From: an uncultured Clostridia bacterium
GTDB taxonomy: Bacteria > Bacillota > Clostridia > Christensenellales > CAG-314
Direction: 5' to 3'
Assembly (NCBI GenBank): GCA_947623225.1
Contig: CANQGO010000002.1
Coordinates: forward strand, 16,714-80,713
DNA length: 64,000 nt
Positions 651-47,303 of this stretch are shown here, piece after piece; position 1 is the stretch's first letter, and each line of letters begins with the position of its first letter. The notes below the pieces were generated by a model. That model saw nothing but the letters and a program-made list of their open reading frames with translations, made no database searches and was not told the origin of the DNA. Both the position numbers and the translations under genes were made by a program.

Positions 651-2093
651 TTATTTGTAAGTATCACCGTATTTTGCGACGGCATTTGAATATTGTTTGT
701 TCGCCAATTCATTGCACTTCGTGGCGTGTTGCGTATATTCGACGTCGCTTATACCGTTCCAGCAAGCGTCAAGGAATTGTCCCATATTGGCATTGGGCAC
801 TGTCTGCTCTCCGCCGTCCGTCATCACAGTGACAGACAATCCGGTCGTAGCATTCCATCTTGCTCCTTGATATCCGGGTACGATCTTGGTGGGCTCCATG
901 ACGGCCTTGTCAAGTTTGTCATACATTTGCTCCACGCCGTCGATGGGGAATATAGCGAAGAACTTCTCTACCGTTGCCTCATCAGTGATCATGGGAAGAG
1001 TATTGGGGACCTTCTCTGCGTCCTTTGTGCTCGACTTTGCCAGTTCTATACGTTTGGCAATTCCTTCCGGGCCATAGCCCATCCACTTTGCCAACTCAAA
1101 TGCAAGTTCGGGATCCTTTGTTCCCTTATATATAGACGTGTAGTCGGGGATCAATATGGAGAAGCTATCCGTGCGCTTATGCTCGCTGGTAGATCCCGCC
1201 ACATAGGGGAGCCCGATAAAGCGAATTTCAAACCCGTTGTGAACTTTATTGTACATATCGGGTGCTTCGTACGTGCTGCCGTAACGGAATGCTATTTGAC
1301 CTTGGTTAAATGCATCTGCGATCTCGGCACCGCTGAAGTCGGCTGTACGCTCATCCGCCGTAAGCGAGTCATACGAATAATGGCCGTGACGTATCTCTTT
1401 AGTTTGAGCAATACCGGCCTTGAATTCCTCGCTGTCAAGGTGATACTGGCTTCCGTCCCACGTAAACATACCGTAGTCCGAATTGTATGCGGAGGGATAC
1501 CACTCAAGGAAGGAATCTTCCTTATTCAGTGCCACCGCTCTTGTTTTGGACTCGGAGTCTACCAATTTGATTTGCGGAAACGTGGAAATCAACCACTCAT
1601 AAGTAAATTTATCTGATGAAGGCAACGTTATATTGTTCTTCTTGAGCAGATCCACATTTACAAAGAAACCGTTCATATGCATTGCAAAAGGTATAGCGTA
1701 TATACCGCTCTTGTAGTGTGCGGATTCTTCGAGTGAAGCGGGGATTTTTTTCCAATCGCTGTCGGCTTCGGCAAACTCTTTAATATCCAGTCCGTATTCG
1801 TTTACCAAAACATAGTTGAGGTTACTGATCATAAATACGTCAGGTGCGTCACCGCGCGCTATTGCTGCCTTGATAGCATCATCATATCCGACAGGATAGT
1901 TCATTCTTTTGATTTTTACGTCGTGTGCCTCTTCAAATGCCTGAAGCATATACTCTTCCACCGTCGGTTCCGTTTCGGTACCGAGGTTCCAACAAGCGTA
2001 CGTGAGATCATACTTGTCTTTGCATGCAGTAAAGAGTACGACCGTTGCCGTAAGTACGAGTACCAACGCCAATACGATAGCTAATCTTTTCAT
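651..2093 (-). CDS. ABC transporter extracellular solute-binding lipoprotein (sugar type, family 1-like)
   Basis: The ORF track gives 651..2180. I start the gene at ATG 2093 (MKRLAIVLALVLVLTATVVLFTACKDK, a signal peptide plus FTAC lipobox), with GGAGGA at 2100-2105 on the coding strand. Its ~480 aa length and composition are typical of carbohydrate SBPs. It sits directly downstream of the GH94 gene. Confidence 0.8.
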   Translation of the reverse strand: MKRLAIVLALVLVLTATVVLFTACKDKYDLTYACWNLGTETEPTVEEYMLQAFEEAHDVKIKRMNYPVGYDDAIKAAIARGDAPDVFMISNLNYVLVNEYGLDIKEFAEADSDWKKIPASLEESAHYKSGIYAIPFAMHMNGFFVNVDLLKKNNITLPSSDKFTYEWLISTFPQIKLVDSESKTRAVALNKEDSFLEWYPSAYNSDYGMFTWDGSQYHLDSEEFKAGIAQTKEIRHGHYSYDSLTADERTADFSGAEIADAFNQGQIAFRYGSTYEAPDMYNKVHNGFEIRFIGLPYVAGSTSEHKRTDSFSILIPDYTSIYKGTKDPELAFELAKWMGYGPEGIAKRIELAKSSTKDAEKVPNTLPMITDEATVEKFFAIFPIDGVEQMYDKLDKAVMEPTKIVPGYQGARWNATTGLSVTVMTDGGEQTVPNANMGQFLDACWNGISDVEYTQHATKCNELANKQYSNAVAKYGDTYK

Positions 2094-2125
2094 GTCTGTC
2101 CTCCTGTTTTTACTTTTATTGATTG

Positions 2126-4474
2126 CTACTCTATTTCCAATTCTACGGAATGTTCTCCGGGACCGAGATCCGGAACACATCCGTTTGTAACCTGACCGTC
2201 CACTGTAAGCAGTCTGCGTCCTGTACGCCTAACGGTGATATCGTAAACAGCACCTCTGAATGTACGTCTGTAACGATATCCTTGCCAACTTTCGGGAATA
2301 CACGGTTCTATGACCAAGCCCGTATAGGTGGCACGCACGCCGAGGATCCAATTGACCGCTACCCTGTGCAACCACTGCGCCGAGCCGGAGTACCAACTCC
2401 AACCGCCCTTTCCGAAATACGGAGAAATGGGACCGTCACTGTTGCCCGGCAGAACGTACGGTTCCGACTTGAACGAATCTATGTCCTTGCCCCTATTCGG
2501 AGGACAAAGTCCGCTATAAGCCCGATATGCCAGATCAGATCTGCCCATCAATGCTTCTGCCCATACAGCCCAAGTCGCAGCATGCGTATATACTCCGCCG
2601 TTTTCGCGCAATCCAGGCGCATAACGGGTAATATAGCCGACTTCTCGGTCGGGGGAGCAATACTCCGGAGACAGCAATAATGCGCCGTGTTCCTTAAGCA
2701 AATATTTTTCCACCGATTTCATGGCTTTTTGCTTGCGTTCTTCGGTTGTAATATCGCTTATGACCGCCCATAGCTGAGGATTGAGGAAAATTTGTCCCTC
2801 CGAGTTGTCCTTGCTGCCAAGTTTTTCGCCCAAGTCATTGGTTGCTTGCAAGAACCACTCTCCATCCCAGCCGTATTTATTGAAATCGTCCCTGAGTCTT
2901 ACGGCTCTGTCTTTCAATAATTGGCAGAATTCGTTATCTCCGTGCTCGGCAGCAACAGGTGCAAAACGAGTAATTATATAGTAGAGAAACTCCGCCACCC
3001 AAAAGCTTTCGCCCTTCATCGCATGTCCTACGGCAGATAGTCCGTCGTTCCAGTCATGGGCACCCATAAGGGGAATACCACGCTCGCTGAACATGCCGAG
3101 ACTGTGATTTATCGCCGCCTTGCAATGTTCATATATTGTTGCGCTACCGCCGTCCAACCATATCGCTTCCTTGTCGAGAATATCACGGTTGCCCACTTCT
3201 TCCATGTAGCACAGCACTGCAAACGGCAACCACAGGAAGTCATCCGAGCAGGTCGTACGCGGCCCCGCGCCATTGTATGTAAGCCACCAATGCAATACAT
3301 CTCCTGCGCGGAACTGCTTGGTAGCGTGCAGCAATATCTGTCTTTCCGTAATAGACGGATCCGTTTCCAACGCCACAAGACTGTCTTGCAACTGATCGCG
3401 GAAACCTATGCCGCCACTTATCTGGTAATACGCTGCCTTCGCCCACATACGGCAGGACAACGCCTGATATTTGCACCAATAGTTGGTCATGACATCAAAT
3501 GCGGGGTCGGGAGTATCCGCATGCTCTCTGTCACACAACTCCGTCCAATAGTCGATCACGCGCCGCAATTCCGCCTGCGCCTGCTCCACACGCGTAGAGG
3601 CAGCAAGAGAACGATATTCCTCTTCTCCTTTTCTGGCAAGCCCTATGGAAAAGCACAACGTCGCACTGCCATAAGCGTCAAGATCCACATCCGCGCGCAA
3701 GGCGGCTACAGGATCTCCGTATCTGCCGCGGCTGCATGCAAGTCTGTCTTGAGACATTGCCGCAGGATCCGCCTCGTCACGATACATACCCACAAAGGAT
3801 TCTTTGTCCGTATCAAAGGACGACGGCGATTCGGAACATGCGAAAAATGCGGTGTAAGGATAGTCATCATTGTTATAACGCCCCTTTTCATCAGGGAAAC
3901 CCCACAGGCACTTATTCGCTACGACAGCGTGAAGACCGTCGTCATATTCCATGTCATAAAACAGACGCTGGAATTCTCTGTGCGTATCATAAGCGATGCC
4001 CAGTGCCCACTCGAAATATCCTGTCACGTCCAACTTGCGGTGACGATCCGTAAGATTTTTCAACGTCAGCAGCGCATACTCCATAGGCTTCTCGCGAGCC
4101 ACAAATACGGTGAGCGTGCTCTCGACACCCTCCGTGGAGCGTACAAACGTAGAATATCCCAAACCGTGACGCACAGTATAGCTATCGACGTTGCCTTTGA
4201 CCGGATTGAGCGCGGCACTCCAGAATCGTCCGCTTTGTTTATCGCGCAAATAGAAATATTTGCCCCAATTGTCCTTAACTATATCCTGATACAAGCGGGT
4301 GATACGATTTTGCTCAGCATTGCCACGGAAAGAAAATCCGCCGCCCATCTGAGAAACCATCATGGAATAGTCGCCGTTGCTTATCACATTGATCCACGGT
4401 CTCGGAGTATATGGATCGGTAATCACGAACTCTTTGCCGGATTCGGAAAAGAATCCGTATTTATTATTCAACAT
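2126..4474 (-). CDS. GH94-type glycoside phosphorylase (cellobiose/chitobiose/beta-glucan phosphorylase family)
   Basis: The N-terminus YGFFSESGKEFVITDPYTPRPWINVISNG and the ~780-aa length match GH94 phosphorylases as I remember them. The likely start is ATG 4474 (MLNNKYGFF), but the ORF-track start at 4516 cannot be excluded. Confidence 0.8.
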   Translation of the reverse strand: MLNNKYGFFSESGKEFVITDPYTPRPWINVISNGDYSMMVSQMGGGFSFRGNAEQNRITRLYQDIVKDNWGKYFYLRDKQSGRFWSAALNPVKGNVDSYTVRHGLGYSTFVRSTEGVESTLTVFVAREKPMEYALLTLKNLTDRHRKLDVTGYFEWALGIAYDTHREFQRLFYDMEYDDGLHAVVANKCLWGFPDEKGRYNNDDYPYTAFFACSESPSSFDTDKESFVGMYRDEADPAAMSQDRLACSRGRYGDPVAALRADVDLDAYGSATLCFSIGLARKGEEEYRSLAASTRVEQAQAELRRVIDYWTELCDREHADTPDPAFDVMTNYWCKYQALSCRMWAKAAYYQISGGIGFRDQLQDSLVALETDPSITERQILLHATKQFRAGDVLHWWLTYNGAGPRTTCSDDFLWLPFAVLCYMEEVGNRDILDKEAIWLDGGSATIYEHCKAAINHSLGMFSERGIPLMGAHDWNDGLSAVGHAMKGESFWVAEFLYYIITRFAPVAAEHGDNEFCQLLKDRAVRLRDDFNKYGWDGEWFLQATNDLGEKLGSKDNSEGQIFLNPQLWAVISDITTEERKQKAMKSVEKYLLKEHGALLLSPEYCSPDREVGYITRYAPGLRENGGVYTHAATWAVWAEALMGRSDLAYRAYSGLCPPNRGKDIDSFKSEPYVLPGNSDGPISPYFGKGGWSWYSGSAQWLHRVAVNWILGVRATYTGLVIEPCIPESWQGYRYRRTFRGAVYDITVRRTGRRLLTVDGQVTNGCVPDLGPGEHSVELEIE

Positions 4475-21589: not shown

Positions 21590-22846
21590 CTAATTTACCG
21601 ATACATTGTCTGCACCGAAAAGCGTGCAAGACAAAAATGCCGTCAAAAGTCTGCGCATTGTATCTATATCTTCTATACCGCACGTTTCGCTCGCCGAGTG
21701 CATGGCCAGCTGAGCAATACCTATATCACAGACTTTCATGCCCAATTCGCGTGCCGTGACAAGTCCCAGTGTACTGCCTCCCGACAGTTCGCTATTGTTA
21801 TACAGATCCTGATACGGCAAGCCGTGTTGGTCGGATAACCGTTTGACTATAGCCGCACTCAGTCCGTCCGTGGCATAATTGACGTGATGCTTAATGATAA
21901 CGCCGCCGTTCAGTCGGCAATGATATACCGGATCATGCTTTTCGGGGTGAGCGGGATGCGCTGCATGTCCATTGTCCACAGAGAGCACCATTCCGTTTTC
22001 CGTGGCGTAGAACAGTGCCGTTTGCGACATATTTAATGCCGAGGCGATCCCGTCTATCACCTGATGTAAAAAACTCGGCGCACCCTGCCGCGAACCACTG
22101 CCCGTTTCCTCATTGTCCAGACAAGCCACTATGGCTATATCCTGCGGATCGGCGTCCACAAGCGCGTAAAGAGAATTGTATACGCTTGTCAAGTTGTCCA
22201 GCCGTGCCGAGCAAAGGAATTCGTTGTGTAGACCGCACTCGAACGCTTCGGAAGCGGGCACGGCATACAGATCGGCGTCCAGCACACGCTTGTTTGTGAG
22301 ACTGCGATACAGGTTCGCTTCTCCCTGCGCCAACAAGGGCAACAGGTCGGTCTGTACATTCAAAAAAGGCTTCTCGTTTGCCTCTCTATTGAGATGGATA
22401 GCAAGACTGGGGATGGTAATATTGTAGTCGCTGACGACAAGTTGTTGCTCCACGCCATCCGCCGTTTCCAAAAGCACGCGTCCCGCAACCTTCATTTTAC
22501 GGTCGAAGTAACTATACATCAATCCGCCGCCGTACTTTTCCGTATCAAGCCGCTTGAGCCCGTCATTTTCTATCAATCTATCCCCCTTTATCTTGAAAGA
22601 GGGGCTGTCCGTATGACTGACAGCGATATTAAATACGTCTGTTTGCCCTACACAGAATGCCACAACGGAACTGCCGTTACGCGTGACGAAATAACTTCCG
22701 CCGCGTTCCAATTGCCAACTGTCCCCGAGCGTCAACTGCATAAATCCATGCTCTCTGAGCACCTCGCAAATATTCGCCGTCACATGATAAGCCGTATAAC
22801 CACTATCCAAAAATTCTTTCAATTCCATTTTTCTTCTCCATTTCAT
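21590..22846 (-). CDS. M18 family (aspartyl/glutamyl-type) aminopeptidase
   Basis: It has HTDSPSFKIK and a size of about 415 aa. ATG 22846 overlaps the stop of the upstream ATP-grasp gene (ATGA). An alternative start is MELKEF at 22828. Confidence 0.75.
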   Translation of the reverse strand: MKWRRKMELKEFLDSGYTAYHVTANICEVLREHGFMQLTLGDSWQLERGGSYFVTRNGSSVVAFCVGQTDVFNIAVSHTDSPSFKIKGDRLIENDGLKRLDTEKYGGGLMYSYFDRKMKVAGRVLLETADGVEQQLVVSDYNITIPSLAIHLNREANEKPFLNVQTDLLPLLAQGEANLYRSLTNKRVLDADLYAVPASEAFECGLHNEFLCSARLDNLTSVYNSLYALVDADPQDIAIVACLDNEETGSGSRQGAPSFLHQVIDGIASALNMSQTALFYATENGMVLSVDNGHAAHPAHPEKHDPVYHCRLNGGVIIKHHVNYATDGLSAAIVKRLSDQHGLPYQDLYNNSELSGGSTLGLVTARELGMKVCDIGIAQLAMHSASETCGIEDIDTMRRLLTAFLSCTLFGADNVSVN

Positions 22847-23730
22847 CTTGATTTGTCGTTCGCCGCTACGCTATTTACGATATGAAGCGCATAGGCTCTT
22901 GCCACGTTGAACTGTGTAACCGATTCCATCTCTTCAAACATTGCGTTGCTGTTCACTTCACACAATTTTGGCGGATCTGTAAGTAATACGTCAACGCCGC
23001 AATAGTCCAACCCTATGATGCTCGCCGCCTTCTCGCACATGATCTCAATATCCCGCGGTATAGCTGTACTCTCGCCCTTGCCGCCCAACGCCACATTGGA
23101 ACGGAAGTCGTGCGCGTTGATCCTGCGCATTGCACATACAGCCTTGCCTCCTATGACTATCACTCGCATATCGGAACCTCTGCTACCGGCTTCGTATCTC
23201 TGCAACAAGTGCGGTTTGCCCTTGATCTCTTCCAACTTATCCCGCAGTTGAGAAATACTGTCGCATAGATACACCTGCTCTCCGAAACTGCCGTGACACT
23301 CTTTCACTACGACGGGCAGGCCCAATCTATCCACGATTTTTCGCATATATGAATCGCTATCGACCCGCGCGTCGGCGCAATAGCACAAAGGTCCGGCAAT
23401 GGTATCCGGCATGAGTATGCCACTATCGGCGAGCACCGCATGCGTCAGCATTTTGTCGTCGCATATTTCCGTCGCTTCCGCCCTGTTGAACAAGCGTATT
23501 CCCGCCTTTTCCAACATGCTCGCAATGATGCGTTCTTTATCAAAATACAACACAAAATCTTCGTTAATATTACATTTTATCCTTCCATCACAGACATACA
23601 CAGCAAGGCCGTCATTACGAACCACACGTGTTTCTACACCCAGCGCAGCAAACTCTTCCTGCATCCTCGCCGTTTTGCGAATCTGCGCTCTGCTTGTATC
23701 GTATGGATTCACCAAAATCACGCCTTTCAT
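22843..23730 (-). CDS. RimK-like ATP-grasp ligase
   Basis: This 295-aa protein has an ATP-grasp layout (PVVVKECHGSFGEQVYL … LLQRYEAGSRGSDMRVIVIGGK … DYCGVDVLL). Confidence 0.7.
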   Translation of the reverse strand: MKGVILVNPYDTSRAQIRKTARMQEEFAALGVETRVVRNDGLAVYVCDGRIKCNINEDFVLYFDKERIIASMLEKAGIRLFNRAEATEICDDKMLTHAVLADSGILMPDTIAGPLCYCADARVDSDSYMRKIVDRLGLPVVVKECHGSFGEQVYLCDSISQLRDKLEEIKGKPHLLQRYEAGSRGSDMRVIVIGGKAVCAMRRINAHDFRSNVALGGKGESTAIPRDIEIMCEKAASIIGLDYCGVDVLLTDPPKLCEVNSNAMFEEMESVTQFNVARAYALHIVNSVAANDKSR

Positions 23731-23851
23731 AACTTAGCATTATACAATAAAACACCTTATCAGTCAATAACACAAGCAATATATGACATAAATTGTCCGA
23801 ATTATCGACTATCTTTGTAAAAACTTCTTTCAAAAAGCAGGAGATTTCTTT

Positions 23852-24064
23852 GTGGAGTATTGGTGGATCCTGGTAGTGATAGGCGTACTGTTTCTGCTGG
23901 GTATCCTGTCCATATTCTTCCCTGTACTGCGAGTAGTTTTCAAGTGGCTTTGGATAGGTATAAAGTGGATATTCAAGATACTTTGGTACATAATCTCCGC
24001 GCCGGCGCGGCTGGTGGTGCTGTTGATCAACAAGGCAAAAGCCAAGAAGGAGGGTTCCGGCTAA
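23852..24064 (+). CDS. Small hydrophobic 2-TM protein (70 aa), unknown function
   Basis: GTG start at 23852 with CAGGAG upstream. The sequence MEYWWILVVIGVLFLLGILSIFFPVL…WIFKILWYIISAPARLVVLLI has a lysine-rich tail. Its stop codon is 1 nt from the U-tract of the sRNA-A terminator. Confidence 0.55.
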   Translation: MEYWWILVVIGVLFLLGILSIFFPVLRVVFKWLWIGIKWIFKILWYIISAPARLVVLLINKAKAKKEGSG

Positions 24065-24065
24065 T

Positions 24066-24210
24066 AAAAAAACACCCGGGACTTTTGTCCTGGGTGCTGC
24101 GGAGCCTCACAGCTCGCCGACTCTTGTCGGTACTTTCACTCTCTTAGGCTACTCCGCTCGGTCGGTCTTAGCTTGCTTTCCGACTTTAGCCGTTGTATGG
24201 CTACCGAGAG
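24066..24210 (-). ncRNA. Candidate sRNA copy A (~145 nt), family unknown
   Basis: Minus-strand -35 TTGACA (24246-24241), an 18-nt spacer, and TGt-TAAAAT (-10 at 24222-24217). The terminator hairpin is CACCCAGGAC-aaaa-GTCCCGGGTG (24096-24073) followed by U7 (24072-24066). There is no ATG inside. It shares perfectly conserved blocks with copy B. The 5' end is predicted only. Confidence 0.5.
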
Positions 24211-24245
24211 GATTTCATTTTAACATAAAAAAGAAGGTGTTGTCA

Positions 24246-24587
24246 ATGACTAAAATTGTAAATAGAAAAAGAAAGCCCAATGAGGCTAACCTCGCCGGGT
24301 TGATGGTGGTAAACTCGGATATTGCATGGGACTATAAGAATAGACGTTGGCGCAAAGGCGTTTACGGTGCCGTGGACAAAGAGCTGACATTCATTACCAC
24401 TACCGTGCAGTCTAAGGACGGCACTCGGCGCAGAAAATTTGTAAATGACGTCACTGAGCTGCCGAACGTCACGAATGAGCGGGTGATGGCTTTCTTTGAC
24501 AATAAGCAAAATGTCCAACGTAGTAAATGCTACCTTGTAGAGAAATCTCTCTACGAGGAAATGGTAAAAGGTCGCAAGAAAGTATGA
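24246..24587 (+). CDS. orfX: 113-aa highly basic protein, no recognisable family
   Basis: ATG 24246 with AGAAGG 8 nt upstream. The protein is MTKIVNRKRKPNEANLAGLMVV…RRRKFVNDV…KGRKKV. Its stop overlaps the ATG of the P-loop fragment (ATGA at 24584-24587). It has a diverged paralog at 24861. Confidence 0.6.
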   Translation: MTKIVNRKRKPNEANLAGLMVVNSDIAWDYKNRRWRKGVYGAVDKELTFITTTVQSKDGTRRRKFVNDVTELPNVTNERVMAFFDNKQNVQRSKCYLVEKSLYEEMVKGRKKV

Positions 24588-24784
24588 TCACCATAATTTT
24601 CGGCAAGCCCGGGGCAGGCAAAACGGCGTATCTGGTCAGTCAGATGCTGCGTTACCCGAGTAACACCCAATATTATGACCTGACAAAAAAGCACCCGGGA
24701 CTTTTGTCCTGGGTGCTGCGGAGCCTCACAGCACGGTTCTCAAAGGAACTCCATTTCAGCACTTTCGCTACTCCGCTCGGTTAG
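24584..24784 (+). pseudogene. Truncated P-loop NTPase gene (Zot/pI-like extreme N-terminal Walker A)
   Basis: MITIIFGKPGAGKTAYLVSQMLRYPSNTQYYDL is native sequence up to about 24684. After that, the frame reads into repeat copy B (KKHPGLLSWVLRSLTA…) and stops at 24784. Confidence 0.55.
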
Positions 24785-24826
24785 ACCCCACCGGTTCTAA
24801 CTTTGGGTTTTGTTACCCACCAGCGC
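24685..24826 (-). ncRNA. Candidate sRNA copy B (~142 nt), paralog of copy A
   Basis: Minus-strand -35 TTGACA (24861-24856), a 17-nt spacer, and TGt-TAAACT (24838-24833). The terminator has the same 10-bp hairpin extended by one G-C pair (24716-24691), followed by U6 (24690-24685). The 40-nt block 24692-24731 is identical to 24073-24112, and the 15-nt block 24767-24781 is identical to 24148-24162. Confidence 0.5.
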
Positions 24827-24860
24827 AGTAGTAGTTTAACACAATTCAGGAGGGTTGTCA

Positions 24861-25070
24861 ATGATAAATAATCCGAACAGAAACAGAAAGAAAAATATTA
24901 ACCTTGCCGGACTTTATGCGGTTCCATATAACGTTGCTATTAAAAACAAATCTTGTCCGAAGTTTACTTGAGCCCGAACGATGGCGATCTACGGCAACTT
25001 TTATCCGGCACAAACAAGTAAGACTACAGAAAAACGCACCGTCTACCGCGATTGCGCCCTGAGCGTATGA
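24861..25070 (+). pseudogene. orfX' : diverged paralog of orfX interrupted by an in-frame TGA
   Basis: AGGAGG lies 7 nt upstream of ATG 24861. MINNPNRNRKKNINLAGLYAV aligns with the orfX N-terminus. There is a TGA at 24969-24971, but similarity continues in the same frame (AIYGNF…TSKTTEKRTVYRD versus GVYGAV…QSKDGTRRRKFVND) up to the stop at 25068-25070. Confidence 0.5.
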
Positions 25071-25345
25071 AACGTTGATTAGTTAAAATACTTGTAAATT
25101 TAACAAAGAGATGCTAAACTTTGCGTAGAAAAATAAGTATTTCGCCAAATGAAAGAACCTTCCGCCGAATGGTAGATCTGTTTCGTAATTGCGCGAAGAA
25201 CCGAATTAAAATCTTGGTGCACCGCATGAGCACAATAAAAAGACTATGCCCACGATATTGTCGAAGATTAGATATCATCGCGCGGCCGTTGACAGTAAAG
25301 AGACCCGAGAAATGAATAATGCAAAAAGGAAGAGGAAAGATTGGA

Positions 25346-25610
25346 ATGGTAAAAAGTAATGTGGTATACGATGAAGAAGATTTGGAATTTCTGCGTATAA
25401 TTGTAAAACGCAATTCTGAAGTAACCTTTACGTGCAGAGGATTGACGTACAGGATAGAGGCTCCCGGCGGCAAACCTTTTGTACCTTGATGAAAGAGATA
25501 CTCCCGAGTATTATTTCGAGGATCTTGATGACTTGCTGGAACATTACATTATAGATGGCGTTCCATTTAAGGATATAATTCCCAAGATAGAGTTTTGTGG
25601 TGAGGGTTAG
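25346..25610 (+). pseudogene. Frameshifted small ORF (~90 aa if repaired), unknown family
   Basis: Frame 1 is MVKSNVVYDEEDLEFLRIIVKRNSEVTFTCRGLTYRIEAPGGKPFVP, stopping at 25487-25489. The frame starting at 25476 continues as LLYLDERDTPEYYFEDLDDLLEHYIIDGVPFKDIIPKIEFCGEG to the stop at 25608-25610. The switch lies at the CCTTTT run (25475-25480). A strong purine-rich RBS is upstream. Confidence 0.45.
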
Positions 25611-25630
25611 GTTTCATCATTAAAATATTT

Positions 25631-25665
25631 AGTACGCATTGGCTAAGTCCGTGCGTACTTTTTTG
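25631..25665 (+). terminator. Intrinsic terminator
   Basis: Stem AGTACGCA / TGCGTACT (8 bp) followed by TTTTTTGTT. Confidence 0.7.
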
Positions 25666-25679
25666 TTAAGGAGAAAACT

Positions 25680-25909
25680 ATGAAAACAAAAGGCAGTAAA
25701 AATTTAACATGGACTCAGCGTTTGCAACCGGAAGCGTTACCGGCTGCAAAGTTAAGTAAGCGGCAGAATGCCGATACACTCGTCTATTCGCAATGATCGC
25801 CAAAATCGCGCCGAGTCCTGTATACGGAAGAGCAAAAGACCGTATAGTGAATTACGCTGGGAACGCCGCAAGAAAACGGCATTATTACTCTATCGATCAC
25901 TTTTGAGCA
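25680..25909 (+). pseudogene. IS30-family-like transposase N-terminal remnant
   Basis: AAGGAG plus ATG 25680 gives MKTKGSKNLTWTQRLQPEALPAAKLSKRQNADTLVYSQ, then a stop. This resembles the HTH-containing N-terminus of IS30-type transposases (K-HLT--ER--IE-L------IA--LG). A second frame continues as AESCIRKSKRPYSELRWERRKK. There is no catalytic domain, and the sequence is cut off by the gerAC 3' end. Confidence 0.35.
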
Positions 25910-27037
25910 TCAGCTCTCGTTTATCTTGACGGAGAGCCGCACAGGGAAATCTTGCATAGGTTTGGTCGCAAGCGCATTGCTCGAGCCTTCCTTTCTGCGA
26001 TACATTTCATGGAAATCCAGCAAGTCGAAATTGTACTCCACTTGTGCGGACAAGTATTGCTCTGCCACATAACGCGCCTGTCCGGTGACGTCGTCTAAAA
26101 CTTTCTGCGGTATCTCGGTGTTGTTCTTGGCAGTTATAGGTCCGCTCACTTCTTCGCTGTCTGTCCTGCCATAACGCACCGTTATGTCCAAGTCTATAAT
26201 AAACCCACCTCCGCCGTCGGGTTTCAAGTCCACCTTTTTATCCGTAACCTGAACGGTACGCGTCACGATATCCTCAAAAGAAACGAATGTCTCTCCGTAT
26301 ACGTCGGGCAAAAATAATGACAAACCCTTGACTTGCTGTTCGGACAGTGTAGTCACATATCTATTGGCGCGAAAAATACATATCTCCCGATACCCTATAT
26401 ATCCCATCTGCTTATCCGGCAAACTACTGTCGGTATTTTCGGAAGGGACAAATTTGATCCTGTTCAGAAACCCCGTGCGGTCCAGTTCATTCTGACTGCG
26501 AGCATACTGTAGCAAACTGTTGTTGGGTACGGCTATTTTCTCCGCCTGATCCAAAAGTGCCGTAGAGATCGCAATGGACATACTCTGCGTCAACGCATTG
26601 CCGGAGTTGAACAACGACTTGGCGTCACCTTCGCAACAGCAAATGACTGCACTTTCCTTAAAACTGTGATGGTTTATAAAATATTCCGTCAAGTCGCTGA
26701 AATCTACTTTCTCGTAATATTCTTGACCCAACACAAGCACCACGCTCTGTCCTAAAGACGCCTCTTTTCCTGTAACTTCTGCCACATTTTGAATGGCAGT
26801 ATTGATAGTCTCGCCCACGACAGAGACTATCTTGCTGAATGTGCCCACCTGCTCCGTGCCATTGCCGGGCGAAACGACTTCGCATGTCAGGACCACTCCT
26901 CCGTCGTCAGACAAATCCACTCCCATACCGAGAATTATCGCACGATCCATAACATCGCTACCCTTGAAACTTCCAGCGACCGCCGCTACGACGGCAACGA
27001 CTGCCAGTACTATGCCTATTCGTTTAAGATTGCTCAC
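25910..27037 (-). CDS. Spore germination protein, Ger(x)C family
   Basis: DRAIILGMGVDL is typical of GerAC-type proteins. I start it at GTG 27037 with GGAGGTG upstream. The track ORF extends to 27277 only by running through the gerAB 3' end in another frame. Confidence 0.8.
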   Translation of the reverse strand: MSNLKRIGIVLAVVAVVAAVAGSFKGSDVMDRAIILGMGVDLSDDGGVVLTCEVVSPGNGTEQVGTFSKIVSVVGETINTAIQNVAEVTGKEASLGQSVVLVLGQEYYEKVDFSDLTEYFINHHSFKESAVICCCEGDAKSLFNSGNALTQSMSIAISTALLDQAEKIAVPNNSLLQYARSQNELDRTGFLNRIKFVPSENTDSSLPDKQMGYIGYREICIFRANRYVTTLSEQQVKGLSLFLPDVYGETFVSFEDIVTRTVQVTDKKVDLKPDGGGGFIIDLDITVRYGRTDSEEVSGPITAKNNTEIPQKVLDDVTGQARYVAEQYLSAQVEYNFDLLDFHEMYRRKEGSSNALATKPMQDFPVRLSVKINES

Positions 27038-43187: not shown

Positions 43188-43799
43188 CTATTGCTTGTTC
43201 TCTCTGAGCAGGTCCACGATCTCGGTGAGCAACTCCTGCTCCGTCTTGGGCGCGTTGGCTGCAGCCTCTTCTGCCGCTTTGCGATCCGCCTCTTCCTGCT
43301 CGGCTTTCTTCTGAGCAGCGATCGCAAGAATTTCCTGCGTGGTCTTCCCTTCGCGACGGAATGCTACAACGTCTTCCTTGGACAGAGGTGCGTATTTGCC
43401 CTTCTGCTTGTCTGCATTTTCATGCACCGTGTTGATCGCCTTGATGATGCAGAACAGCACTATGGCTATAAGCAGGAAGTTGATGATGGCGGTGATGAAC
43501 GCACCCCAGTCAATATATATAGACTTGGTCAGGTCTATTATTTGCTTTCCTTGCTCGTCCAGCAAAATCTTGCCGTCATCTCCCACCTGGTAAGAGGTCT
43601 GCAAGAACGTATATATATTCTCAAAGCCCTTGCCGCCGGTCACCATAAACAACACCCAATTGACTATAGGCATGAGTATGTTGTTCGTGAGCGCAGTCAC
43701 TATCGCCGTAAATGCACCGCCGATGATAACGCCGACAGCCATATCGATAACATTACCACGCGTGATGAATTTCTTGAATTCGCCAAAAAATTTTCTCAT
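43188..43799 (-). CDS. mscL: Large-conductance mechanosensitive channel, extended form (203 aa)
   Basis: The start is corrected to ATG 43799 (MRKFFGEFKKFITRGNVIDMAVGVIIGGAFTAIV), with AAGGAGAAG upstream. It has a long loop and a charged C-terminal tail. Confidence 0.88.
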   Translation of the reverse strand: MRKFFGEFKKFITRGNVIDMAVGVIIGGAFTAIVTALTNNILMPIVNWVLFMVTGGKGFENIYTFLQTSYQVGDDGKILLDEQGKQIIDLTKSIYIDWGAFITAIINFLLIAIVLFCIIKAINTVHENADKQKGKYAPLSKEDVVAFRREGKTTQEILAIAAQKKAEQEEADRKAAEEAAANAPKTEQELLTEIVDLLRENKQ

Positions 43800-43926
43800 A
43801 ACTTCTCCTTTTGGTAATAATATTTTATTTGTGCTCATAGTATAGCACCGCTCGCCTGTTTTTTCAAGCAGTTTCAACCAACAAAAGATTATTGTGCGGC
43901 CCTTCATATAAAATCTGCTCAATCAG

Positions 43927-43955
43927 TTGCAAAAAAGTTTGCAATCTTGTATAAT
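43927..43955 (+). promoter_or_regulatory. Sigma-A promoter of tRNA-Pro
   Basis: TTGCAA (43927-43932), a 17-nt spacer, TATAAT (43950-43955), 11 nt before the tRNA 5' end. Confidence 0.65.
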
Positions 43956-43966
43956 AGTATGGCAAT

Positions 43967-44042
43967 CGAGGTGTAGCGCAGTTGGTAGCGCGCTTGGTTC
44001 GGGACCAAGAGGCCGCTGGTTCGAGTCCAGTCACTTCGACCA
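43967..44042 (+). tRNA. tRNA-Pro (anticodon CGG), CCA encoded
   Basis: I folded the cloverleaf by hand. The acceptor stem is CGAGGTG/CACTTCG, the D stem GCGC/GCGC, the anticodon stem CTTGG/CCAAG with loop TTCGGGA, and the T arm GCTGG-TTCGAGT-CCAGT. The discriminator is A, followed by CCA. Confidence 0.93.
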
Positions 44043-44044
44043 CT

Positions 44045-44092
44045 CTGGACTCAACCGAACCCGTAAGGGAGAAGTTGAGTCCAGATTTGTAT
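44045..44092 (+). terminator. Terminator hairpin after tRNA-Pro
   Basis: An 11-bp stem CTGGACTCAAC / GTTGAGTCCAG followed by ATTTGTATAT (a weak U tract). Confidence 0.55.
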
Positions 44093-44155
44093 ATACCGTA
44101 ACAACGTCCATATATTTTGTCTTTCGTCCGTTGGTTGTAGCACAGTTCTCGTGCA

Positions 44156-44264
44156 AGTCAACGGCGAAAAATTTTTGTAATATATTCAATGTTTTGAGGA
44201 GTCGAGATGTTAAATTCTCGGTTCTTTCTTTTTACAAAAATTTTTATGTTTTCCCGTTGACTTA
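44156..44264. repeat. Long interrupted inverted repeat (10 bp + 13 bp arms) enclosing a 53-nt loop
   Basis: AAGTCAACGG (44156-65) pairs with CCGTTGACTT (44255-64). AAAAATTTTTGTA (44168-80) pairs with TACAAAAATTTTT (44234-46). The loop holds GAGGAG and the start (ATG 44208) of a 17-codon ORF (MLNSRFFLFTKIFMFSR) that runs on into arm 2. Confidence 0.6.
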
Positions 44265-44483
44265 TACAATAACAAATTTTAATACAATATCTTACAGACC
44301 GACCTGTGCTATGCCTGTTCTGCCGAAAGGCAAAAAATATATGGAGGTATATTCGGTTGGACAAACCTCCTCTCGACCACGCTGTTGTAACTCGTTGAAA
44401 AAACTTTTCTTGCTATCTTGTGACTCATTTTTTGCTTTGATTCCTAAAGGGCAAGCAAAACAACAAGAGAGTTATATTCGAAT

Positions 44484-44511
44484 TTGCATTTTTATATTTT
44501 TGTGATATAAT
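44484..44511 (+). promoter_or_regulatory. Sigma-A promoter of the Cys/His-repeat lipoprotein gene
   Basis: TTGCAT (44484-89), a 16-nt spacer ending in TGa, TATAAT (44506-11). AAGAGGTG and the TTG start at 44533 follow. Confidence 0.55.
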
Positions 44512-44532
44512 AAAAATATAAAGAGGTGCAAA

Positions 44533-45903
44533 TTGAAAAAAGCTGAAGATGTTTGGGTCGACGAACAAAAAAATTTTGAAGAAAACTATAGAGAGGACAT
44601 CCTCAGAGACCCATCACGATTTGATCGAATTATCAAAAAACTGCAAAAGATTTTTGGCATTGCTATGCCAATTATCACCGCTGCAACAATGTCAACGGTT
44701 ATGGTTGCTTGCAAGCCTGACACGCCAACACCTCCAAAACCGGCACACACCCACCGCCTTTTGAAAGTTAACGCTGTGAAGGAAAGCTGCACACAAGACG
44801 GAATGAAAGCGCACTGGGAATGCAGTGACTGCGACAAACTGTTTTCTGACAGCCAAGGCAAAAACGAGGTGCAAAAAGCCGACCTTGTTGTGAAGGCACA
44901 TCACACCCTCACCCACAAAACTGAGCAAAAAGCAACCTGCACCGCTGACGGAAACATTGACTATTATCACTGCTCCGCTTGCGGCGAAAACTTCCTTGAC
45001 GCCAATGGCAAAAACAAAGTTGACCTTGACGACACTGTTATCGCGTCAAAAGGCCATGTTGTTGGCGACGAGTGGCAGCATGACGAAAACGGCCACTGGA
45101 AAGTTTGTGGCGCATGCCATGAACAAGTTGACTACCACGCACACAACTTTGAAGACTTTGTTTGCACTGACTGCGGCGCTGTCGACGAGCAAAATAAGCC
45201 TTTGACTGAGGAAGAAATAACTTTAAAAATTACTGATGCACTTGAAGAAAATATATTAAACCTGATAAGGCCAGATTCGATAGTCAATTATTTAGCATTA
45301 AACTCTGCAATAGTTGATGGACAATACAAAGTTCAAATTTTAGTAGATTATTTGAGCTCAATGTCTGGCAAAGAAGAAGAATATCTTTCATTGGTTGAAC
45401 TACCTATCACTCAAGAATTTACTCCTGAAAATGTTAAAAACGGTTTATGCTTACCTACAGCAAAAAGGACAGGCAAAAAACTAATAACATTTAAAAAGGC
45501 AACGGAAGACGAACGCGGCGTTGAAATTTTGAAAAAAATTGATCCGGAAGGCGACCATGACCATTATGATTTTGTGAGTGTGAAAATTGGAACAGGTAGT
45601 GTAACACAAGATTCATATTTAATATACACGATTAACCGTTTTGGCATAAAAGCTCAATGTGTAAACGCTGATAGTTTTGGCGTGCGTGATGTTGTCGAAA
45701 CCAGCATTCTGAATGGGACTGAAGGGCAAACTTATGAACTAAATCACAAAGCTGATGAAAATTATGAATTCAGCGATAATGTTATTTACAATTTTAATGG
45801 ACTTTTAAATAAAACAGAAGAAAAGGCTTATGACATTTTGCTTGATGGAAGAAAGGTGGGAATGGCACAAGGGAATGTGATGTTCTATGAAGTAGATTTG
45901 TAG
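44533..45903 (+). CDS. Membrane-anchored/lipoprotein-like protein with three tandem Cys/His-rich repeats, unknown function
   Basis: A charged N-terminus is followed by IFGIAMPIITAATMSTVMVACKPDTP (anchor with a lipobox-like VAC). Three repeats of the form H..L.H….ATCT.DG….Y.C..CG..F.D..GKN.V follow, then an AT-rich-encoded C-terminal domain. Confidence 0.7.
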   Translation: MKKAEDVWVDEQKNFEENYREDILRDPSRFDRIIKKLQKIFGIAMPIITAATMSTVMVACKPDTPTPPKPAHTHRLLKVNAVKESCTQDGMKAHWECSDCDKLFSDSQGKNEVQKADLVVKAHHTLTHKTEQKATCTADGNIDYYHCSACGENFLDANGKNKVDLDDTVIASKGHVVGDEWQHDENGHWKVCGACHEQVDYHAHNFEDFVCTDCGAVDEQNKPLTEEEITLKITDALEENILNLIRPDSIVNYLALNSAIVDGQYKVQILVDYLSSMSGKEEEYLSLVELPITQEFTPENVKNGLCLPTAKRTGKKLITFKKATEDERGVEILKKIDPEGDHDHYDFVSVKIGTGSVTQDSYLIYTINRFGIKAQCVNADSFGVRDVVETSILNGTEGQTYELNHKADENYEFSDNVIYNFNGLLNKTEEKAYDILLDGRKVGMAQGNVMFYEVDL

Positions 45904-45967
45904 ATGTGGGGATTTCTCCACTTCGGTCGAAATGACAACCAATAATTAAAATATTGCAGAAAAAAAT

Positions 45968-45995
45968 AGTGGCGGAAACGCCACTTTTTTTGTTT
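45968..45995 (+). terminator. Intrinsic terminator
   Basis: AGTGGCG-gaaa-CGCCACT followed by TTTTTTTGTTTT. Confidence 0.8.
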
Positions 45996-46213
45996 TAGAT
46001 CTCTCGACTACGTTCGTTTTGCCCGACCCGCTTCGGACTTGACAGAGCCCGCAAGATGATCTCGACTGCGACATTTCATGAGATATTGCGACGTTGAAAG
46101 AGGGGCGATTGCGAATATATCTGTAGCGTTAACAAACTTTTGTTTCGGAAGATGGCCCACATACTTTCTTTTTGTATCGCAGGGTGATATAATAGAGCAA
46201 AAGGGGAACGGAA

Positions 46214-46825
46214 ATGACTAAAAGAGAAATATACAAAGAGCGACTGTCCGCGCTGAAAAGGGACTCTCACGGCAAGTATACCAACAAGAAATTCATCGCC
46301 AAGCGACTACAATCCGACAACACCGTACGCATAAACGTCAACCTGCCCGAGGATATGGACATATTCGATCCGATGGCTCCGGCGGAGTACGGACAATTAA
46401 ACCCGGAGATCTATCGCTACATAGAAGAGCAGGCTTACTTCGTGCCCACCGAATACGATATTACAGTAAATTTCGTCGGGCGCGAACTCTCACCCGTACA
46501 ACAAAAACAGGTGGAGACGGCTCTGCGCGACCACTACAACATGCAAGTATATGACAAGCTGGATGATATACACAGCAACCGTTCGCTTGGGCTGTTTTTG
46601 CTTATATTCGGTATCGTCGCGCTTGCGGCATACTTCTTCATCACGCTATTCGCAGAAAATCTTATCTTCCACGAAGTGATAAGTATAGTGGGGACATTCT
46701 CCATATGGGAAGCGGTAGACTGCTGGCTCATCAACGGGCACCACACCAAGGTAGAGTTGAACAACGCGTTGCAGATGGCTTTGACAAAGATCACCTTCGC
46801 AGGACGATCAAGCACCGACAAATAA
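46214..46825 (+). CDS. Hypothetical membrane protein (soluble N-terminal half, 2 C-terminal TM helices)
   Basis: GGGGAACGG lies upstream of ATG 46214, and an extended -10 TGATATAAT lies at about 46184-46192. TM segments are LGLFLLIFGIVALAAYFFITLF and VISIVGTFSIWEAV. Confidence 0.65.
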   Translation: MTKREIYKERLSALKRDSHGKYTNKKFIAKRLQSDNTVRINVNLPEDMDIFDPMAPAEYGQLNPEIYRYIEEQAYFVPTEYDITVNFVGRELSPVQQKQVETALRDHYNMQVYDKLDDIHSNRSLGLFLLIFGIVALAAYFFITLFAENLIFHEVISIVGTFSIWEAVDCWLINGHHTKVELNNALQMALTKITFAGRSSTDK

Positions 46826-46847
46826 AAAAGGCGCAACCGCAGTTGCG

Positions 46848-47303
46848 TCAATCGGATATTCTCTTGGATTTGAAATACTCCGTCAGTATGGCGGAGCATT
46901 TTTTTTCCAATACACCTCCGCACAGTTGCAATTCGTGATTGAGCGTGCGCCCGAGCGTCTCCGCAATGGGCACACACCCCTCGCCGCTCAGATCGTATGC
47001 GCCGAAGTATACCGTGCTCAAGCGTGCATTGAAGCAAGCCCCGAGACACATGACGCAGGGCTCCAGCGTCACATACATATCGCAGCCCGCCAGCCGCCAA
47101 TCTCCCAAACGCTTGCAGGCGCGCCTGATCGCGATCAATTCAGCATGGCCTGTGGCGTCGTGCGAAGCATTGCGAGTATTGTGCGCTACCGCTATCACTT
47201 CTCCGTCCTTCACTATAACAGCACCTATAGGCACCTCGTCCGACTTGGCAGATATGCGTGCCTGTCTCAAGGCAACGGACATGAATTTTTCCGCGTCGGT
47301 CAT
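46848..47303 (-). CDS. tadA: tRNA adenosine(34) deaminase
   Basis: HAELIAIRRAC and PCVMCLGA zinc-binding motifs, 151 aa. The start overlaps the GH2 stop (ATGA). Confidence 0.92.
   Translation of the reverse strand: MTDAEKFMSVALRQARISAKSDEVPIGAVIVKDGEVIAVAHNTRNASHDATGHAELIAIRRACKRLGDWRLAGCDMYVTLEPCVMCLGACFNARLSTVYFGAYDLSGEGCVPIAETLGRTLNHELQLCGGVLEKKCSAILTEYFKSKRISD

Follow-up and report, generated by a model that had tools for sequence, protein, structure and literature searches.

An islet between gerAC and a RimK-like gene of an uncultured Clostridia bacterium is very probably an inovirus-like prophage remnant carrying two predicted small RNA genes

Why is a conserved gene neighbourhood around the gerA operon interrupted, in one uncultured Clostridia bacterium, by 2.2 kb of sparsely coding DNA, and what has this DNA been? 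The islet occupies the interval between gerAC and a RimK-like ATP-grasp gene, at 23731-25909 of a 64,000-nucleotide stretch of contig CANQGO010000002.1 (assembly GCA_947623225.1); this whole stretch is called the window here, and positions refer to it unless another locus is named. Related loci and homologous proteins bear L and P numbers. A first-pass annotation, made from the sequence alone, had described the islet as decayed mobile DNA, perhaps the eroded end of a larger element, in which duplicated modules of a small RNA (sRNA) and a gene called orfX were the only parts that still looked functional. The evidence presented here makes it very probable that the islet, from ~23768 to 25909, is what one or two inovirus-like prophages have left behind, with apparently intact sRNA genes, and that the sRNA is likely to be a cis-antisense regulator. 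The features are collected in Table 1.

Synteny shows that the islet was inserted here, with the 3′ end of gerAC on one side of it and the promoter of the RimK-like gene on the other. Two relatives, L046 and L047, obtained by protein search and contig look-up, share with the window the gene order SPOUT methylase, DUF951, S26 peptidase, GerA, spore permease, GerAC, RimK, M18 peptidase and phosphoglucomutase, and in both the GerAC and RimK genes are adjacent, with gaps of 157 and 251 nt, as they should be if the first-pass annotation was right to suspect an insertion. These relatives are the nearest available yet distant (their RimK-like proteins are 67-68% identical), and a scan of GTDB genomes with the single RimK-like protein returned no sufficiently close relative. 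Window positions 23699-23767 align at 84% with the region upstream of the RimK gene in L046, and the alignment stops at the -35 box of the RimK promoter. Since host homology stops there, foreign DNA begins at ~23768; the earlier assignment of all of 23731-25909 to the foreign element thus took in the native RimK promoter at 23731-23767. On the right, GerAC has kept its full length up to the stop at 25910, which places the junction just left of this position. As had been noted before, the islet has neither a tRNA flank (the nearest tRNA in the window is at 43967-44042) nor an att repeat, flanking direct repeats having been sought around it and none found.

The same islet is present in four independent metagenome assemblies at 99.95-100% identity, from which it could be supposed that no insertion took place and that the host's own sRNA genes lie here in native intergenic DNA passed down vertically. 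So high an identity means that the four assemblies represent one strain and provide no test of selection; the region is moreover missing from the nearest other relatives, and phage homologues exist for all of its parts, so this view is extremely improbable. The recurrence in independent assemblies also means that the breaks in the islet's genes are not assembly errors.

All alignable parts of the inserted DNA match inovirus-like prophages of 8-10 kb from gut Clostridia, at ~85% nucleotide identity (23915-24651 against L025, 85%; 24685-24925 against L019, 85.5%; 25211-25780 against L048, 85.6%), in agreement with the earlier description as decayed mobile DNA left over from a larger element. These related elements carry all genes on one strand and encode proteins of 60-65 amino acids (aa), proteins of 465-685 aa, a helix-turn-helix (HTH) repressor, a rolling-circle Rep (PF23343 in L025, L002, L019 and L048; PF01446 in L006 and L023) and a recombination gene, which specifies a tyrosine or serine recombinase or belongs to the IS30 family. 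In most loci read, orfX is directly upstream of, and translationally coupled to, a gene of ~280-305 aa, which in most loci matches PF05707 (Zot). Read from sequence, this gene content is that of filamentous (inovirus-like) prophages. Their hosts in GTDB records are metagenome-assembled genomes (MAGs) of uncultured Clostridia, Lachnospiraceae and Christensenella, together with a few doubtfully named bins. The database comparison proposed in the first-pass annotation did not lead to them: BLASTN of the islet in distant mode found no match among GenBank phages and PLSDB plasmids, no relative was found in 50,697 GenBank phage records (BLASTN of the islet) or in IMG/VR (OrfX profile scan), and relatives are found only in metagenome assemblies and MAGs.

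With their Zot/pI-like ATPase, rolling-circle replication Rep, size of 8-10 kb and one-strand genes, and with chromosomal integration, related copies in tandem and decay by deletion, these elements and the islet are comparable to the Enterocloster inoviruses (PMC10061712) and to the CTXphi/RS1 arrays of Vibrio cholerae. They differ in that the relatives of the islet form a separate, uncharacterised lineage, of which the islet holds only fragments, and in that its likely integrase remnant is an IS30-family DDE transposase rather than XerCD or a tyrosine recombinase. In one relative, L039, positions 2047-2095 (+) give a sub-threshold match to the Rfam ssNA-helicase RNA motif RF03070 (31.3 bits, E 0.029), a site that may be the true single-strand origin of these phages.

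How did the fragments come to lie side by side? The alignments show contributions from two phage lineages, an L025/L002-type piece (segment 1, 23816-24655) and an L019/L048-type piece (segment 2, 24683-24947, and segment 3, 25108-25781). L019 and L048, each with a 391-aa Rep and both from the same study, look like two halves of one phage type; we therefore take segments 2 and 3 for a single prophage that has lost ~3.2 kb internally and is cut short on the right, while segment 1, on its homology, is from a second, L025-like phage. Absent from the internal joint, by comparison with L019/L048, are the rest of orfX, zot, a 149-aa gene and Rep. Deletion joints and leftover junction DNA probably account for the four stretches that have no homologue (the left junction DNA, the two joints and the stretch before the GerAC stop codon). 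We also considered, and reject, an origin of the two sRNA/orfX modules by tandem duplication at this site, as the copies match different phage lineages; the duplicated modules of the first-pass annotation are thus of separate origin.

The four genes that had been called broken, namely a truncated P-loop gene, the second orfX copy (orfX′), an ORF (open reading frame) of ~90 aa and an IS30-like stub, are each confirmed as such against intact homologues, and two further remnants are added to them. The first is a 70-aa ORF (23852-24064), which had been taken for intact; it lies inside the 3′ end of a 665-685-aa phage gene, whose nucleotide homology to L025 begins at ~23822, and it corresponds to the hydrophobic C-terminal part of the protein, which is putatively an adsorption or pIII-like protein with a C-terminal membrane anchor. 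The second is a decayed 108-aa gene at 25129-25356, with 68% nucleotide identity to L048 in blastn over 25108-25216. The P-loop gene is zot′, the start codon of which overlaps the orfX stop codon (ATGA). Over its first 23 aa it does not differ from the Zot-like protein of L025 (305 aa), a protein that scores 32.8 bits against PF05707 (cut-off 20.3); the stub alone gives a weak match only, to phrog_197 ('Zot-like', E 1e-3), and its ORF continues without homology to 24784. The N-terminus of orfX′, MINNPNRNRKKNINLAGLYAVP, resembles that of P0018, MTKIPNRNRKKNINLAGLYAVP; ~30 homologous codons are followed by a stop, and the segment from 24900 onward gives tblastn matches over its initial 16 aa only.

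The 91-aa gene changes frame near 25483 and is thereby split into ORFs at 25319-25489 and 25479-25610. P0140 is 87% identical over the full joined length, and the intact homologues P0140-P0144 have 90-91 aa. An assembly error was considered as the cause of the frameshift and is rejected, the same frameshift being present in three other assemblies. The protein matches phrog_3711 (E 9e-7); the repaired protein and the read-through IS30 stub found nothing in Pfam, nor did the 91-aa protein in a tblastn search against phages. The hairpin and T-run that follow the gene are likely to be its terminator, and the same inverted repeat (I3) occurs in L048.

Rep, full-length Zot and the coat genes are not in the islet, and most of the IS30-family transposase is gone; a rolling-circle Rep (HUH) gene, in particular, is present in intact relatives and not here. 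It follows from these losses that the element is now unable to replicate, assemble or move. The low coding density noted earlier is borne out, orfX (342 nt) being the sole complete gene in 2.2 kb. Compositionally, the islet shows a dip that is genuine yet modest and uneven. Its GC content of 43.2%, against 47.5% for the window, is at the 3.5th percentile (among windows of the same length the standard deviation is 2.0%, and 3.5% are as low or lower), so the lower GC reported before is confirmed and its extent, given as 23-45% against 50%, was overstated. By tetranucleotide deviation the islet ranks 10th among 619 windows and is the second most deviant region, exceeded only by one at ~43.4-46 kb. 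The spacer at 23731-23851 has 28% GC and the right part (24971-25909) 41%; the phage core (23816-24970) has 45.9%, at the 20th percentile, and is not deviant.

Near its right end, the islet retains 34 codons of an IS30-family transposase gene, the ORF of which closes at a premature TGA (25794-25796). The homologous 346-aa protein of L048 matches the NCBIfam IS30 equivalog NF033563 with 207 bits and HTH_38 with 34.5 bits; a complete DDE transposase (HTH_38 and rve) is not in the islet, where the stub has no Pfam match. That this protein meets the equivalog model is what would be expected if the right third of the islet were a truncated IS30-family insertion sequence (IS) that had landed independently, the islet then being a mixture of IS and phage debris. 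However, in L048 the 108-aa gene, the 91-aa gene and the transposase gene come directly after Rep in the same order and with the same spacing as in the window, the identity of 85.6% continues unbroken across the boundary between the 91-aa and transposase genes, the linkage of these two genes is found again in the diverged L049, and no terminal inverted repeats bracket the IS30-family gene, either in the window or around the intact gene of L048. An independent IS is accordingly very unlikely. Because of this linkage in two diverged loci, and because bracketing inverted repeats are lacking, the stub is most likely the remnant of the phage integrase. The statement that no integrase is visible was therefore misleading: none is complete, but a stub of one is most likely there. 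The stub shares with IS30-family ISs its homology to the N-terminal HTH of an IS30-equivalog protein, and differs from them in that 34 codons are kept, inverted repeats are absent and the gene has, in the relatives, a fixed place at the right end of the phage.

A virus-like particle-packaged element from a gut Pumilibacteraceae MAG, with a partial IS30 and an 'inovirus gp2 family' Rep, has been described whose insertion site is a sporulation gene's 3′ end (bioRxiv 10.64898/2026.07.08.737213), and is possibly of the same kind as the one decayed in the islet. In L005 a tRNA gene (3405-3490, minus strand) is situated ~70 nt after the Rep gene of the L002-type phage, for which reason the L002-type lineage seems to integrate at a tRNA, whereas the L048 type has the IS30-family gene at its end.

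What, then, are the sRNA genes that have been kept in this debris? The ~180 nt upstream of orfX are conserved in every orfX homologue with upstream sequence at hand, whichever gene precedes them (the 685-aa gene, Rep_1 or others). We read this spacer, from its conserved signals and folding, as an sRNA gene family on the minus strand. Its predicted promoter is of the sigma-70 type, with a -35 box (TTGACA/T) that overlaps the orfX start codon and a -10 box mostly preceded by TG. Both boxes are conserved in 21 aligned homologues, as consensus evidence only, and in the scan of the region the promoters of sRNA-A and sRNA-B rank first and third (11/12 and 10/12). The body, of ~110 nt, consists of hairpins and a long-range helix with an invariant U·G pair and a GUGAG bulge. 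The RNA would have a total length of ~150 nt and end in a GC-rich hairpin and U-run right after the stop codon of the upstream gene. This hairpin, followed by the U-run, is found in all 21 sequences, at -12 to -19 kcal/mol, and its stem covaries, seven of nine pairs changing on both sides. In the window, the terminator of sRNA-A (hairpin 24073-24096 and T-run) folds with -16.9 kcal/mol and that of sRNA-B with -19.3 kcal/mol; both carry one A·C mismatch and were missed by a simple terminator scanner.

The fold is supported by covariation, measured on an alignment of 22 distinct sequences based on the covariance model R1. Paired cells amount to 94.2%, compared with 75.6% in shuffles, none of 500 of which reach this value, and 25 of the 37 sRNA pairs have changes on both sides (slid controls, 32-42%). 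When the helices drawn by RNAalifold are read on the minus strand, they contain 41 G·U pairs and 13 mismatches; on the plus strand, a single G·U pair and 53 mismatches. The terminator hairpin, too, is the more stable in the minus sense in 18 of the 21 homologues. The asymmetry between the strands rejects a further candidate, a riboswitch-like 5′-untranslated leader of orfX on the plus strand. The family matches none in Rfam: no match at the gathering threshold or at E ≤ 10 (Rfam 15) overlaps the sRNAs in the window, and no sRNA match was found at E ≤ 5 in six other loci. A non-exhaustive literature search yielded no description of such an RNA in filamentous phages.

The spacer could instead be a single-stranded DNA (ssDNA) element, that is, a minus-strand origin or packaging signal acting as folded (+) ssDNA, like the Ff intergenic region or the single-strand origins (sso) of plasmids. 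Inoviruses need such an element and none has otherwise been identified in these genomes; the region is intergenic and highly structured, and the terminal hairpin of both window copies is more stable on the plus strand. The free single strand of known inoviruses is, however, the coding (+) strand, the very one on which the helices have 53 mismatches and one wobble, against 13 mismatches and 41 wobbles on the minus strand. One U·G pair is invariant in all 22 sequences, and a minus-strand promoter (-35, 17-18 nt, -10) and a hairpin with T-run bracket the structure in all lineages. A function as ssDNA is thus quite unlikely, and the minus-strand sRNA gene is retained as the explanation of the spacer.

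Both sRNA genes of the window are probably still transcribed, as their signals suggest. Under R1, sRNA-A scores 103.5 bits and its L025 counterpart 107, and sRNA-B 134.4 bits and its L019 counterpart 133.4. The functional appearance attributed to the modules by the first-pass annotation accordingly stands for both sRNA genes, in promoter, in fold, in terminator and in R1 score, and for the first orfX copy, and fails for orfX′, which is broken. The modules are not autonomous cassettes: intact phages have a single copy apiece, and the search with R1 detects two in the window and no more.

Some observations on copies of the sRNA may be added. sRNA-A and sRNA-B are ~72% identical overall, yet they share an identical stretch of 41 nt (24073-24113 and 24692-24732) that comprises the terminator and the first conserved block, with the substitutions behind the A·C mismatch of the RNA hairpin common to both, a pattern suggestive of gene conversion between them once they had been integrated. 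On different contigs of one Lachnospiraceae MAG there are two sRNA/orfX modules (L036 7819-7968 and L037 7817-7968); in L037 unrelated sequence stands where the terminator's 5′ arm and the A/T-run should be, the score falls from 142.7 to 122.1 bits, and the break in the element coincides exactly with the sRNA terminator, as does the window joint at 24682. The top-scoring copies (150.8 bits) are orphans, at L041 1597-1749 (+) and L042 1557-1709 (+), with no orfX after them: the ORF at the usual orfX position has six codons, and a tRNA stands in the place of orfX, ~150 nt beyond the sRNA promoter. They look like orphan sRNA genes at a prophage end.

The other member of the pair, OrfX, is a basic protein with 19 homologues of 108-115 aa and 21 invariant residues, and in related phages its gene is always paired with the sRNA gene, head-to-head. 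It has no match in Pfam, PHROGs, NCBIfam or PADLOC; its AlphaFold model has a predicted local distance difference test (pLDDT) score of 75, for which Foldseek found nothing better than E 0.18 in PDB and BFVD, and a PDB profile search gave noise only. PADLOC likewise matched no defence or toxin family when applied to OrfX, the 70-aa fragment and the 91-aa and 108-aa proteins. In L022 (10001-10333) and L023 (6097-6423) the sRNA/orfX pair occurs with no Zot-like gene after it, in L023 directly after Rep_1; the pair therefore moves as a unit between genome architectures.

The position of the sRNA gene suggests what its product may do. The sRNA is complementary to ~145 nt upstream of the ribosome-binding site (RBS) of orfX, without overlapping the RBS itself, and is most likely a cis-antisense regulator of the orfX-zot leader. 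Because the promoter scan finds no plus-strand orfX promoter inside the spacer, orfX and zot would, in the live phage, be transcribed by read-through from the structural genes upstream. The sRNA would then be a counter-transcript that limits expression of OrfX and the Zot ATPase by duplex formation, by convergent transcription or by both; as the RBS is not covered, the effect would come about through duplex-dependent cleavage or attenuation, or through convergent transcription. The sRNA may also bind a protein partner, possibly OrfX, since its unpaired blocks stay conserved even between phages that have no more than 40-50% identity in OrfX. In the window, orfX may now be without a promoter.

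Several points weigh against the reading of the islet as an inovirus-like prophage remnant with an antisense sRNA. None of the genes that define inoviruses is present in full in the window, and the assignment is made from homologous fragments; neither the right junction nor any att site could be placed; and the IS30-like gene may be an IS riding beside the phage, not its integrase. The expression of the sRNA is predicted, and its terminators in the window, at -19.9 (sRNA-A) and -24.1 kcal/mol (sRNA-B), are more stable on the plus strand than on the minus strand. As to mechanism, simple occlusion of the RBS is excluded by the lack of overlap, and cis-antisense action assumes read-through, no orfX promoter having been shown in the spacer or upstream. 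A screen for trans targets among the translation-initiation regions of six phages (RNAduplex) gave a different top gene in each and was uninformative.

Known antisense RNAs offer a measure for the proposal. Like RNAII of pMV158, RNAI/II of pT181 and OOP of lambda, the sRNA would have its own, constitutive-looking promoter, an intrinsic terminator and conserved stem-loops, and it is predicted to lie opposite the leader of an operon in a rolling-circle replicon. It differs from them in its greater size and elaboration (~150 nt, five helices, a long-range helix with a bulge) and in overlapping neither an RBS nor a rep leader; it also conserves unpaired blocks (the GUGAG bulge, AAAGU and ACCGA) between phages with diverged OrfX proteins, a conservation for which a pure antisense RNA has no need.

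The tight linkage of sRNA and orfX in every architecture read, including those without an adjacent zot, the antisense arrangement, the undiminished model scores of two sRNA copies in a remnant and the orphan copies beside a tRNA in L041 and L042 would also fit an addiction (toxin-antitoxin-like) or superinfection-immunity module that was kept, by virtue of this function, amid deletion. Yet sRNA-B persists beside a broken orfX′, and the sRNA of L041 is without any orfX, so the two are not maintained together as a toxin-antitoxin pair would be. OrfX is not a small hydrophobic peptide and matches no PADLOC model, the sRNA covers neither the RBS nor the coding region of orfX, pieces of ~150 nt can survive beside deletion joints by chance, and the clonal population data (99.95-100%) provide no test of selection. 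Such a module is unlikely. A related proposal, to which we give a similarly small chance, is that the sRNA, alone or with OrfX, is a superinfection-exclusion factor against related filamentous phages and has been kept by host selection in remnants, as two lineage-specific copies in the islet and as the orphan of L041/L042. The immunity RNAs c4 of P1/P7 and CI of P4 would be its models: these too are structured RNAs encoded by phages, and the sRNA could, by analogy, act on phage transcripts and shield lysogens, or cells with a remnant, from related phages. No relationship between them and the sRNA was found in sequence or in Rfam, and no processing signals or repeated target sites were identified for the sRNA. 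If exclusion were its function, the sRNA would be a domesticated RNA defence against inoviruses in gut Clostridia. Regulation in cis of orfX-zot is nevertheless the preferred explanation.

Table 1. Features of the islet and its immediate flanks (window positions)
Feature	Position	Strand	Basis
RimK-like ATP-grasp gene	22843-23730	minus	PF08443, E 8e-32
Native promoter of the RimK-like gene, TTGACT-17-TATAAT	23739-23767	minus	promoter scan 11/12
Left junction DNA, AT-rich	23768-23815	none	no homologue in any locus
3′ fragment (last ~79 codons) of 665-685-aa phage gene	23816-24064	plus	tblastn 62%, E 1e-31, C-terminus of L002 protein
sRNA-A (predicted)	24062-24216	minus	covariance model R1, 103.5 bits, E 1e-26
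sRNA-A promoter (predicted), TTGACA-18-TAAAAT, extended -10 TG	24217-24246	minus	scan 11/12 with TG
orfX, 113 aa, intact	24246-24587	plus	19 homologues
zot′, first 24 codons, Walker A GKPGAGKT	24584-24655	plus	homology to L025 ends at 24658
Joint between phage segments 1 and 2	24656-24682		L025 homology ends at 24658, L019 homology starts at 24685
sRNA-B (predicted)	24683-24832	minus	R1, 134.4 bits, E 2e-35; L019 lineage
sRNA-B promoter (predicted), TTGACA-17-TAAACT with TG	24833-24861	minus	scan 10/12 with TG
orfX′ pseudogene, 36 codons then TGA	24861-24971	plus	orfX homology only to ~24947
Internal deletion joint	24972-25107		no match in any locus
Decayed 108-aa phage gene remnant	25108-25356	plus	tblastn, L048 108-aa protein, 40%, E 1e-11, at 25129-25356
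Frameshifted 91-aa gene	25346-25610	plus	L048 91-aa protein matches two frames, 86% and 90%
Hairpin and T-run after 91-aa gene (likely terminator)	25631-25665	plus	same inverted repeat (I3) in L048
IS30-family transposase, first 34 codons	25680-25781	plus	85% aa identity to residues 1-34 of L048 346-aa protein
Stretch up to GerAC stop codon, somewhere holding the right junction	25782-25909		no homologue in any locus
gerAC	25910-27037	minus	PF25198 and PF05504; 375 aa, full length as in relatives

Elsewhere in the window, the stretch at 43400-46900 has ~39% GC and the top tetranucleotide deviation. It includes, at its start, a gene for tRNA-Pro(CGG) (43967-44042), a 456-aa ORF (44533-45903) with only a sub-threshold match to RYYR-CCHC and a 203-aa ORF (46214-46825) without a Pfam match. 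Possibly this is another foreign islet, larger than the first and sited at a tRNA.

The islet itself is ordinary prophage decay, and as such it accounts for a gap that would otherwise be puzzling in the conserved neighbourhood of gerA and rimK. It also draws attention to inovirus-like prophages of gut Clostridia that form a group hardly described so far, some members of which appear to integrate with an IS30-family transposase. These phages have the predicted sRNA of ~150 nt, strongly covarying and without a match in Rfam, with a promoter interlocked with the orfX start codon and a location, in most members, before the Zot ATPase gene. To our knowledge, the regulation of assembly genes in filamentous phages of Gram-positive bacteria is essentially unknown, and the sRNA-OrfX pair gives a concrete handle on it.

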